A stretch of DNA of 39,474 nt from a virus. Shown here in pieces: positions 38,626 through 38,813 of this stretch. The translations under genes and the position numbers were made by a program. The notes under the pieces are model-generated. The model was not told the origin of the DNA. It did not search any database and saw only the letters and a list, made by a program, of their open reading frames with translations. The stretch is taken from the IMG/VR virus record IMGVR_UViG_3300045988_140196, one strand, 5' to 3'. Each line of letters begins with the position of its first letter. The stretch's first letter is position 1.

Positions 38626-38669
38626 TTTGACAAGTTTCGACAGACTTTTCACATAAAATTTGTTATTAT
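38626..38669 (+). promoter_or_regulatory. TTTGACA + TTTCGACAG elements plus extended -10 TGTTATTAT
   Basis: TTTGACA at 38626-38632, TTTCGACAG at 38635-38643, TATTAT at 38664-38669 preceded by TG. The 21-nt spacing is identical to the 16337/16366 promoter. Confidence 0.5.
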
Positions 38670-38690
38670 ATTAAAAAGGAGGACAAGCTT

Positions 38691-38813
38691 ATGAAAGAAG
38701 ATTTGGAAAAGCTTGAACTAATGATAAAAAATGATAGCCGATATGAAGATATAATAGAGCAGAGTATGCAAATGGATAAATACATAGAAAAGAAAATCGA
38801 GGGAGCGTTATAG
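38691..38813 (+). CDS. Spo0E-like small protein (40 aa)
   Basis: Hand-translated as MKEDLEKLELMIKNDSRYEDIIEQSMQMDKYIEKKIEGAL. The pattern L..lE..i......iie.S..mD.yI resembles the Spo0E-family SQELDxLI helix pair. RBS AAAGGAGG. Confidence 0.45.
   Translation: MKEDLEKLELMIKNDSRYEDIIEQSMQMDKYIEKKIEGAL

Follow-up and report, generated by a model that had tools for sequence, protein, structure and literature searches.

Spo0E-like proteins of Bacillus (Spo0E, YisI and YnzD, and the structures 2C0S and 2BZB) are antiparallel two-helix hairpins of 56–85 amino acids (aa). They carry S-x-x-x-D on helix 2, are detected by the Pfam family PF09388 and act on Spo0A~P. In B. subtilis, spo0E is derepressed once Spo0A~P shuts off abrB, so that Spo0A feeds back on its own phosphatases. 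Induction of yisI is said, after Perego in 2001, to be dependent on Spo0A. The gene described here, a predicted mini-Spo0E of 40 aa, is encoded by a temperate phage, IMG/VR virus record IMGVR_UViG_3300045988_140196 (39,474 nucleotides (nt); this whole stretch is referred to as the window). Its product is likewise modelled as an antiparallel two-helix hairpin with S-x-x-x-D on helix 2, and its SMQMDKYI segment has the x-h-I hydrophobic pattern of SQELDxLI of the Bacillus proteins. It differs from them in length, helix 1 being about 8 residues shorter, and in not being directly detected by PF09388 (hhalign P 0.003–0.02 against the Bacillus proteins). Action on Spo0A~P is presumed. In contrast to the Bacillus genes, the gene is phage-encoded and has a perfect Spo0A box (0A box) at −40, so that the predicted feedback is direct. 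With a probability of about 0.6, Spo0A~P would induce the gene, and its product would act on the receiver domain of Spo0A and delay sporulation of the lysogen.

The Spo0E family is characterized by two helices joined by a loop, an SxxxD motif with a functionally critical Asp and a length of 40–100 aa (PMC11115286). The phage protein, with 40 aa, is at the lower bound of this range. Spo0E of C. difficile consists of 53 aa, has two helices and SxxxD with the conserved Asp, and inhibits Spo0A activity (PMC11115286). Compared by description only, it resembles the phage protein in being clostridial and short, with two helices and SxxxD. It differs in being chromosomal and in binding RstA as well, and no 0A box is mentioned in PMC11115286.

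PF09388-type genes are found in temperate phages of Firmicutes, including many of the Gut Phage Database, and hijacking of sporulation initiation has been proposed for them (bioRxiv 10.1101/2021.07.15.452460; PMC10075063). The phage spo0E genes of Bernard et al. were found with PF09388 at E < 1e-5; the mini family fails this cut-off and was presumably missed. Those highlighted by Bernard et al. adjoin RRNPP quorum-sensing receptors, whereas the window gene is without such a neighbour and has a 0A box. Phage Rap-Phr (phi3T) inhibits the pathway that phosphorylates Spo0A and is thought to delay sporulation of lysogens (bioRxiv 10.1101/2021.07.15.452460). Rap is a large tetratricopeptide-repeat protein, acts on Spo0F and is controlled by a peptide, whereas mini-Spo0E is a hairpin of 40 aa whose presumed target is Spo0A itself.

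Phages phi29 and Nf read the sporulation state of the host through 0A boxes, which repress early promoters and block late activation and replication of these lytic phages (PMC2731898). Six consensus Spo0A boxes are present in phi29 and six in the window, in both cases including pairs separated by 3 bp. In contrast to phi29 and Nf, the window belongs to a temperate phage, and its boxes stand at about −40 of three accessory units, a position that suggests activation. Phage-encoded Spo0E and Rap, and phages that read Spo0A via 0A boxes, are already in the literature, and the advance is incremental. New are a minimal subfamily of 39–40 aa that escapes the Pfam model, a direct, strongly conserved, predicted 0A-box promoter common to phage and chromosomal copies, and a single phage in which three accessory units are likely co-regulated.

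The 40-amino-acid family and its relation to Spo0E

The unit comprises the following elements:
38626–38632, + strand: upstream imperfect 0A-type box TTTGACA (6/7), variable among relatives
38636–38642, + strand: perfect 0A box TTCGACA (reverse complement of TGTCGAA), followed by G, at about −40 to −34 relative to the predicted start site
38661–38669, + strand: extended −10 TGTTATTAT, 18 nt past the perfect box
38677–38682, + strand: ribosome-binding site AGGAGG, 8 nt 5' of the ATG, conserved in relatives
38691–38813, + strand: open reading frame (ORF) of 40 aa (ATG at 38691, stop codon at 38811–38813), putative minimal Spo0E-like hairpin of two helices, the second bearing S25-x-x-x-D29
38799–38820, + strand: hairpin over the stop codon, then ATATTTATGT, a weak terminator-like end of the unit (terminator scan)

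The product of the ORF is MKEDLEKLELMIKNDSRYEDIIEQSMQMDKYIEKKIEGAL. In a word-indexed search of 5.8 billion clustered proteins, the single sequence retrieves 79 homologues and the family profile 227. Nearly all are 39–40 aa in length, and none has an annotation or a Pfam domain. The identical 40-aa sequence is present on 91 contigs of the collection searched, and one member of the 90% cluster on 368. Start codon and ribosome-binding site are conserved. The sole indel in the aligned loci is one codon, in frame. The ratio of nonsynonymous to synonymous substitution (dN/dS) is below 1 in 27 of 28 pairwise comparisons (mostly 0.1–0.5). Judged by these sequence features, the ORF is a real gene under selection.

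Similarity to Spo0E is detected at the level of the family. PF09388 (gathering threshold 23 bits) is the best match of two prophage orthologues, P0072 (68% identical; 16.9 bits) and P0108 (61%; 17.1 bits), with E of about 0.006 and S-x-x-x-D on the signature register of the hidden Markov model (HMM); for P0108 it is the only match. When 1.84 billion representatives are searched exhaustively with HMMER, the family profile retrieves only 29 proteins, almost all short. Among them are P0143 (E 9.2e-7), P0148 (E 7.3e-5), P0152 (E 2.4e-4) and P0151, which score 16.6, 23.0, 26.7 and 18.6 bits, respectively, on PF09388. P0152–P0156 bear PF09388 in precomputed annotation. When family members are scanned singly, 12 of 28 match PF09388, more than match any other family. 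In profile–profile comparison (hhalign), the close 40-aa family (alignment A2) matches the chromosomal PF09388-positive set (A7) with a probability of 97%, P = 8.7e-11 and 45% identity over 31 columns; the alignment of the widened family is gap-free across the core. A Bacillus set was composed of Spo0E, YisI and YnzD, validated at 51–60 bits on PF09388, and of the aligned parts of PDB entries 2C0S and 2BZB (B. anthracis). Alignment with it is ungapped, and S25 and D29 fall on S and D of SQELD. The family-level evidence is judged sufficient for homology and supports the 40-aa protein as a truncated, divergent member of the Spo0E-like superfamily.

In the AlphaFold2 model (35 sequences; pLDDT, the predicted local distance difference test, 90.5), helix 2–13 is followed by a loop and helix 18–39, folded as an antiparallel hairpin. 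This is the two-helix hairpin of PF09388; the fold is generic and therefore necessary, not discriminating. The segment S25-M-Q-M-D29-K-Y-I32 lies on helix 2. S25 and I32 never vary in the 35 close homologues, where conservation of D29 reaches at least 90%; in the widened family it is D29 that never varies, with S25 conserved to at least 90%. The two-helix pattern and the S-x-x-M/L-D-x-x-I segment, both given in a preliminary description of this DNA, are thus borne out by the model and by the homologues. The 40-aa protein is a minimal form of the Spo0E-like fold. PADLOC gives no match to it.

Promoter architecture

The two boxes are separated by the 3-nt spacer AGT and repeat with a period of 10 bp, standing at about −50 and −40. 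Between the end of the perfect box and the −10 hexamer TATTAT there are 21 nt. A usable −35 at 17-bp spacing is absent (CAGACT matches 3/6). The layout claimed earlier, TTTGACA plus TTCGACA 21 nt 5' of the −10, is found at these positions. The upstream TTTGACA is the weaker part of the promoter, as it varies among relatives: phage copies have TTTTACA, TTTTAAA or no box, and chromosomal ones TGCGACA or GTCGACA.

Exact TTCGACA occurs six times in the window, always on the + strand (2.2 expected); five of the six copies are intergenic, just 5' of + strand genes. The combination TTCGACA-N17-21-TGnTAnnnT occurs twice (at 16338 and 38636; 0.013 expected), and two occurrences were attained in 0 of 300 first-order Markov simulations. 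In spoIIG and spoIIE, Spo0A-activated sigma-A promoters, a 0A box overlies the −35 region, and the gap from the −35-like element to the −10 is about 21–22 bp. The window promoter has the same core box, a pair with 3-bp spacing and a box-to-−10 gap of 21 nt. The sequence TGTCGAA is bound by Spo0A of both B. subtilis and C. difficile, and 102 perfect copies are present in the whole genome of C. difficile 630 (PMC3485338). Footprints of Spo0A in phage Nf cover box pairs with a 3-bp gap, and spoIIG serves as the standard control for activation by Spo0A (PMC2731898).

The architecture is retained among relatives. TTCGACA, 17–19 nt and TGnTAnnnT precede the homologue in 22 of 23 IMG/VR loci, with 16 distinct upstream 75-mers; the lone exception has TTTGACA in place of TTCGACA. 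The perfect box is kept in the related loci L001–L015 and L032–L035. Box, distance and extended −10 are conserved, whereas the 18-nt spacer and the DNA 5' of the box diverge freely. Flanks are unrelated in L015, L034 and L035, and the promoter architecture is retained there also. The chromosomal homologue L014 has TGCGACAagtTTCGACAG, 19 nt and TGaTATAAT; the syntenic chromosomal L032 and L033 have GTCGACAggtTTCGACA, 18 nt and TGcTATAAT. Chromosomal PF09388-positive homologues are stand-alone genes, located among methionyl-tRNA synthetase, PMT_2 glycosyltransferase, fructose-bisphosphate aldolase, peroxiredoxin and smpB.

The box accompanies the gene in phage and in housekeeping contexts, which argues for a host factor as its ligand and against a late activator of the phage. 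The latter was rejected on the same ground, the architecture being identical 5' of chromosomal homologues among housekeeping genes. A −35 element of an alternative sigma factor was likewise rejected, given the chromosomal copies and a 21-nt gap that does not agree with known sigma spacings. The host factor would most simply be Spo0A, proposed because it is known for exactly the TGTCGAA consensus, and TTCGACA is regarded as a candidate Spo0A site. The promoter reading of the preliminary description is strengthened by the box, spacing and extended −10 common to phage and chromosomal copies. In many copies a semi-conserved TTTGCA/TTTTCA stretch lies 3' of the box.

Proposed action and alternative explanations

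In a lysogen entering stationary phase, Spo0A~P of the host would bind the perfect box at about −40, aided by the weak box one turn upstream. It would activate the extended −10 promoter, as at sigma-A promoters without a properly spaced −35. The box-bound protein is presumed to activate, not to repress. The hairpin would dock on the receiver domain of Spo0A, where D29 may be offered to the acyl-phosphate, or the site may merely be occluded. Spo0A~P would then drop in a direct negative feedback, and commitment to sporulation would be delayed, or its threshold raised, in lysogens. In many gut Firmicutes, how cells persist and spread from host to host is governed by sporulation. A Spo0A-induced inhibitor of Spo0A, if carried by common prophages, would mean that lysogeny alters the threshold at which abundant uncultured gut Clostridia sporulate. 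Surveys of phage sporulation genes use HMM cut-offs that the mini family does not reach, and the prevalence of this family is probably underestimated. The architecture of box, spacer and extended −10 would offer a ready model of a Spo0A-dependent promoter for lineages without genetics, and the 40-residue hairpin would define the minimal unit still able to act on Spo0A.

Several results weigh against this reading. PF09388 does not match the window protein even at E ≤ 10, so that the gathering score is not reached. NCBIfam and PHROGs give no meaningful match to it. PDB sequence searches with the family profiles miss 2C0S and 2BZB, though both are in the library. Foldseek search of the PDB with the 40-aa model gives no match, the model being too small. 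In hhalign, the match to the Bacillus set is weak, with P 0.023 for the 40-aa family and 0.0032 for the widened family. The bridging proteins clear the Pfam threshold narrowly and are themselves uncharacterised. Helix 1 is shorter than in known members such as YnzD, and residues of the binding surface may be absent with it. No match to the C-terminal domain of Spo0A is found by tblastn in 336 kb of related loci. An extended −10 can fire without an activator, so that a protein bound at −40 could equally repress. The weak Bacillus signal is attributed to the distance between Bacillus and Clostridia, because the certified clostridial set A7 (P 0.0012) is no closer to the Bacillus set than the 40-aa family. 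The earlier assignment to the Spo0E family thus fails for PF09388 on the window protein itself and stands at family level, with orthologues at about 17 bits and an hhalign probability of 97%. Other matches obtained in these searches were discarded, namely a Plasmodium PYST-A paralogue family of NCBIfam (15.9 bits) as compositional noise, and RNA polymerase alpha, bacterioferritin and CsoR in the PDB as chance.

A different partner is conceivable for the hairpin. SinI pairs with SinR, and B. subtilis sinI is a Spo0A~P-activated gene. By analogy, the product could, instead of acting on Spo0A, pair with a related two-helix domain of an XRE-type regulator and titrate it as Spo0A~P rises, a reading regarded as unlikely. 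It is suggested by the following features downstream of the 40-aa gene:
38894–39094: XRE helix-turn-helix (HTH) protein, 66 aa (PF01381, 53 bits), the next gene of the window
39188–39340: ORF of 50 aa, aligned by hhalign to the Bacillus Spo0E profile (P = 0.0011)
38829–38844 and 39131–39146: perfect palindrome GTTTCACATATGAAAC, 5' of the HTH gene and of the 50-aa ORF, respectively

Both copies of GTTTCACATATGAAAC overlap TTCACA −35-like hexamers of the promoters of the HTH gene and the 50-aa ORF. The pair resembles an autoregulated operator pair, and the stretch 38828–39340 looks like a separate two-gene module. The resemblance to SinI/SinR consists in a small helical protein gene beside an XRE-type HTH gene. 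It extends to L034, where a 107-aa fusion (3118–3441, − strand) of an XRE HTH (PF01381, 46 bits) with a C-terminal SpoOE-like hairpin (PF09388, 26.9 bits, residues 67–99, S-H-I-I-D motif) lies at the prophage end, adjacent to and convergent with the 40-aa homologue P0143. The HTH of the fusion is 44% identical to the 66-aa HTH of the window, and the HTH and hairpin ORFs of the window may be a split form of it. BLASTP of the 50-aa ORF against the fusion gives no alignment. Pairing of the SinI type is opposed by several observations. The SinI Pfam family is matched by no scanned member (E ≤ 10), whereas PF09388 is. Among L001–L036 neither the HTH nor the 50-aa ORF is encoded, the L034 fusion excepted, and the chromosomal homologues stand alone among housekeeping genes. 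The HTH of the window is without a hairpin domain, the 50-aa ORF has I40 and F44 where SxxxD has S and D, and P0143 has no BLASTP similarity to the fusion. Conserved S25 and D29 fit a catalytic signature and are unneeded for simple pairing. Spo0A-dependent expression would be a further trait in common with SinI/SinR, as predicted for mini-Spo0E.

The protein could also be Spo0E-like and TTCGACA the site of another host or phage factor, or a repression site of Spo0A; a low probability is given to this. In the repression variant the gene would be on in growth and shut at the onset of sporulation, and there would be no negative feedback. Counted in its favour are the TGnTAnnnT extended −10, which could drive activator-independent transcription, the TTTGCA/TTTTCA stretch, and the same box at the head of two further phage units, which alone could suggest a phage regulator. 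Against another factor, the box is the exact core consensus of Spo0A (PMC3485338), and the architecture shared by chromosomal homologues outside prophages makes a phage-encoded one unlikely. Repression is at odds with a box that lies 5' of the −10 and neither overlaps nor follows it, and with the lack of a usable −35; this is the activation geometry of the spoIIG/spoIIE type.

Very unlikely is a switch with several partners, in which the hairpin would contact an RRNPP-type or other regulator in addition to Spo0A, and the main pay-off for the phage would lie in motility, toxins, biofilm or the lysis–lysogeny decision. For C. difficile Spo0E, interaction with Spo0A and with RstA has been reported, as have effects on toxin production and motility; Spo0E-like proteins occur in non-sporulating species also (PMC11115286). 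An RRNPP receptor gene, however, adjoins neither the window gene nor its homologues in the loci inspected.

That the ORF is a chance reading frame over a conserved non-coding element is effectively refuted by the 39–40 codons kept in more than 200 homologues, the retained start and ribosome-binding site, the in-frame indel, the dN/dS values and the absence of any Rfam match above chance, although the 217-nt upstream intergenic stretch is as conserved (mean pairwise identity 87–89%) as neighbouring coding DNA (85–88%). The Rfam scan of 38300–39474 gives two sub-threshold chance matches only. A known RNA in the 217-nt stretch was considered and dropped, Rfam being negative and conservation about equal to that of the flanking genes.

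Genome context, further 0A-box units and minor features

The terminal 99 nt of the window are identical at both ends (1–99 = 39376–39474). The window is therefore a complete phage genome, circularly closed (terminally redundant), and the Spo0E-like unit accordingly adjoins the attP/integrase end. Lysogeny and structural genes are encoded. The phage is a temperate phage of low-GC gut Clostridia. Principal features are:
187–1401, − strand: integrase
8765–10000: DnaB-type helicase of the replication module
17860–19248: terminase
37613–38473: endolysin, Amidase_2/PG_binding_1
38479–38505, + strand: intrinsic terminator of the endolysin gene, GGTAGGAGCAATCCTACC and a T-run (terminator scan; conserved in all related loci)

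Host names on the records of relatives are Clostridium sp. CAG:245-like or 'Clostridia bacterium' metagenome-assembled genomes (about 30% G + C, human gut). Prophages are flanked by sortase/HIT/alaS/PFL on one side and ychF-hrcA-grpE-dnaK on the other; sporulation genes are absent from the chromosomal flanks on either side. The right end of the window has no match by blastn among 50,697 phage records, and the sole match of the structural half by megablast is one distant rodent-gut phage.

The 40-aa unit is located between the endolysin gene and the attP/integrase end. The interval from endolysin to attP/integrase is a classical site of accessory genes. The endolysin terminator shields the unit from late transcription. 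In the related prophage loci L001–L013 the 40-aa gene begins about 220 nt past the endolysin gene, at the right prophage end; it is found behind differing tail modules (L005 versus L001), and in L035 the homologue adjoins an integrase. Promoter, gene and weak terminator form a self-contained 'moron' unit, as judged by its own promoter and terminator, location at a module boundary and mosaic distribution; units of this kind are not required for the lytic cycle. The basis is the lysin terminator on the 5' side, the hairpin on the 3' side, the module-boundary site and the varied neighbours in relatives.

Two further units are headed by the same box. The second (16302–17012) comprises a hairpin (16302–16327), perfect tandem boxes at 16328 and 16338 (3-nt spacer), an extended −10 TGATATACT 18 nt past the box and a terminator (16989–17012). 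Its gene (16397–16984) encodes 195 aa and has no real match in Pfam, PADLOC or named PHROGs. In other phages this unit has differing genes on both sides and stands where the early module meets the packaging module. The third unit (27992–28713) has perfect boxes at 27992 and 28012, a weak box at 28002 (10-bp period), TATAAT at 28042 and a terminator at 28688–28713. Its gene (28071–28667) encodes 198 aa with two N-terminal membrane helices and weak DUF4190 and DUF7601 matches. It is wedged between the genes for tail assembly chaperones and the tape measure gene. Tentatively, the three promoter–gene–terminator units with boxes at about −40 could form a small Spo0A~P-responsive regulon, by which the prophage would read and damp the sporulation signal. 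This doubtful extension would make mini-Spo0E the smallest known Spo0E-type inhibitor, with other accessory functions switched on beside it and the brake widespread in gut Clostridia.

The sixth perfect TTCGACA (38345–38351, + strand) is internal to the endolysin gene, in its 3' portion, with no obvious promoter context. A tRNA-Pro (TGG) at 17123–17198 separates the 195-aa unit from the small terminase region. The stretch from the lysin terminator to the boxes (38506–38625, 120 nt) is about 89% conserved, the same as coding DNA. It has no Rfam match and contains a perfect 16-bp palindrome TTTCGCTATAGCGAAA (38513–38528), in which G-U wobbles replace stem pairs in L007 as a result of two changes. 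A motif of 18 nt similar to ATACGTTGAATTTTTGCC occurs at 38531 and 38596, and also at 39368 near the attP region.

An early protein of 77 aa (5327–5560, + strand) has an AbrB/SpoVT-type swapped-hairpin DNA-binding domain (PF04014, 29.7 bits) and a C-terminal zinc ribbon; its GITRRLDELGRIVIPMEIR resembles by eye the N-terminal end of AbrB from B. subtilis. A role in modulating sporulation has been proposed for abrB-like genes of phages. In the lysogeny module, a 325-aa gene (2175–3152, − strand) between the CI-like repressor and an M78 metalloprotease matches PDC-S19 (PADLOC, 359 bits), a candidate defence family. The 325-aa gene at the same position in L028 and L031 has matches to Pfam DUF3644 and EC042_2821; other relatives have a Fic gene or a different gene there. 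Some chromosomal copies have a SocA_Panacea/PemK toxin–antitoxin pair before ychF-hrcA-grpE-dnaK. In L001–L006 and L011–L013, a second, orphan cassette of a holin-like gene and an amidase lies about 0.7–2.5 kb downstream of the 40-aa gene, apparently left behind by an older prophage that used this attachment site.

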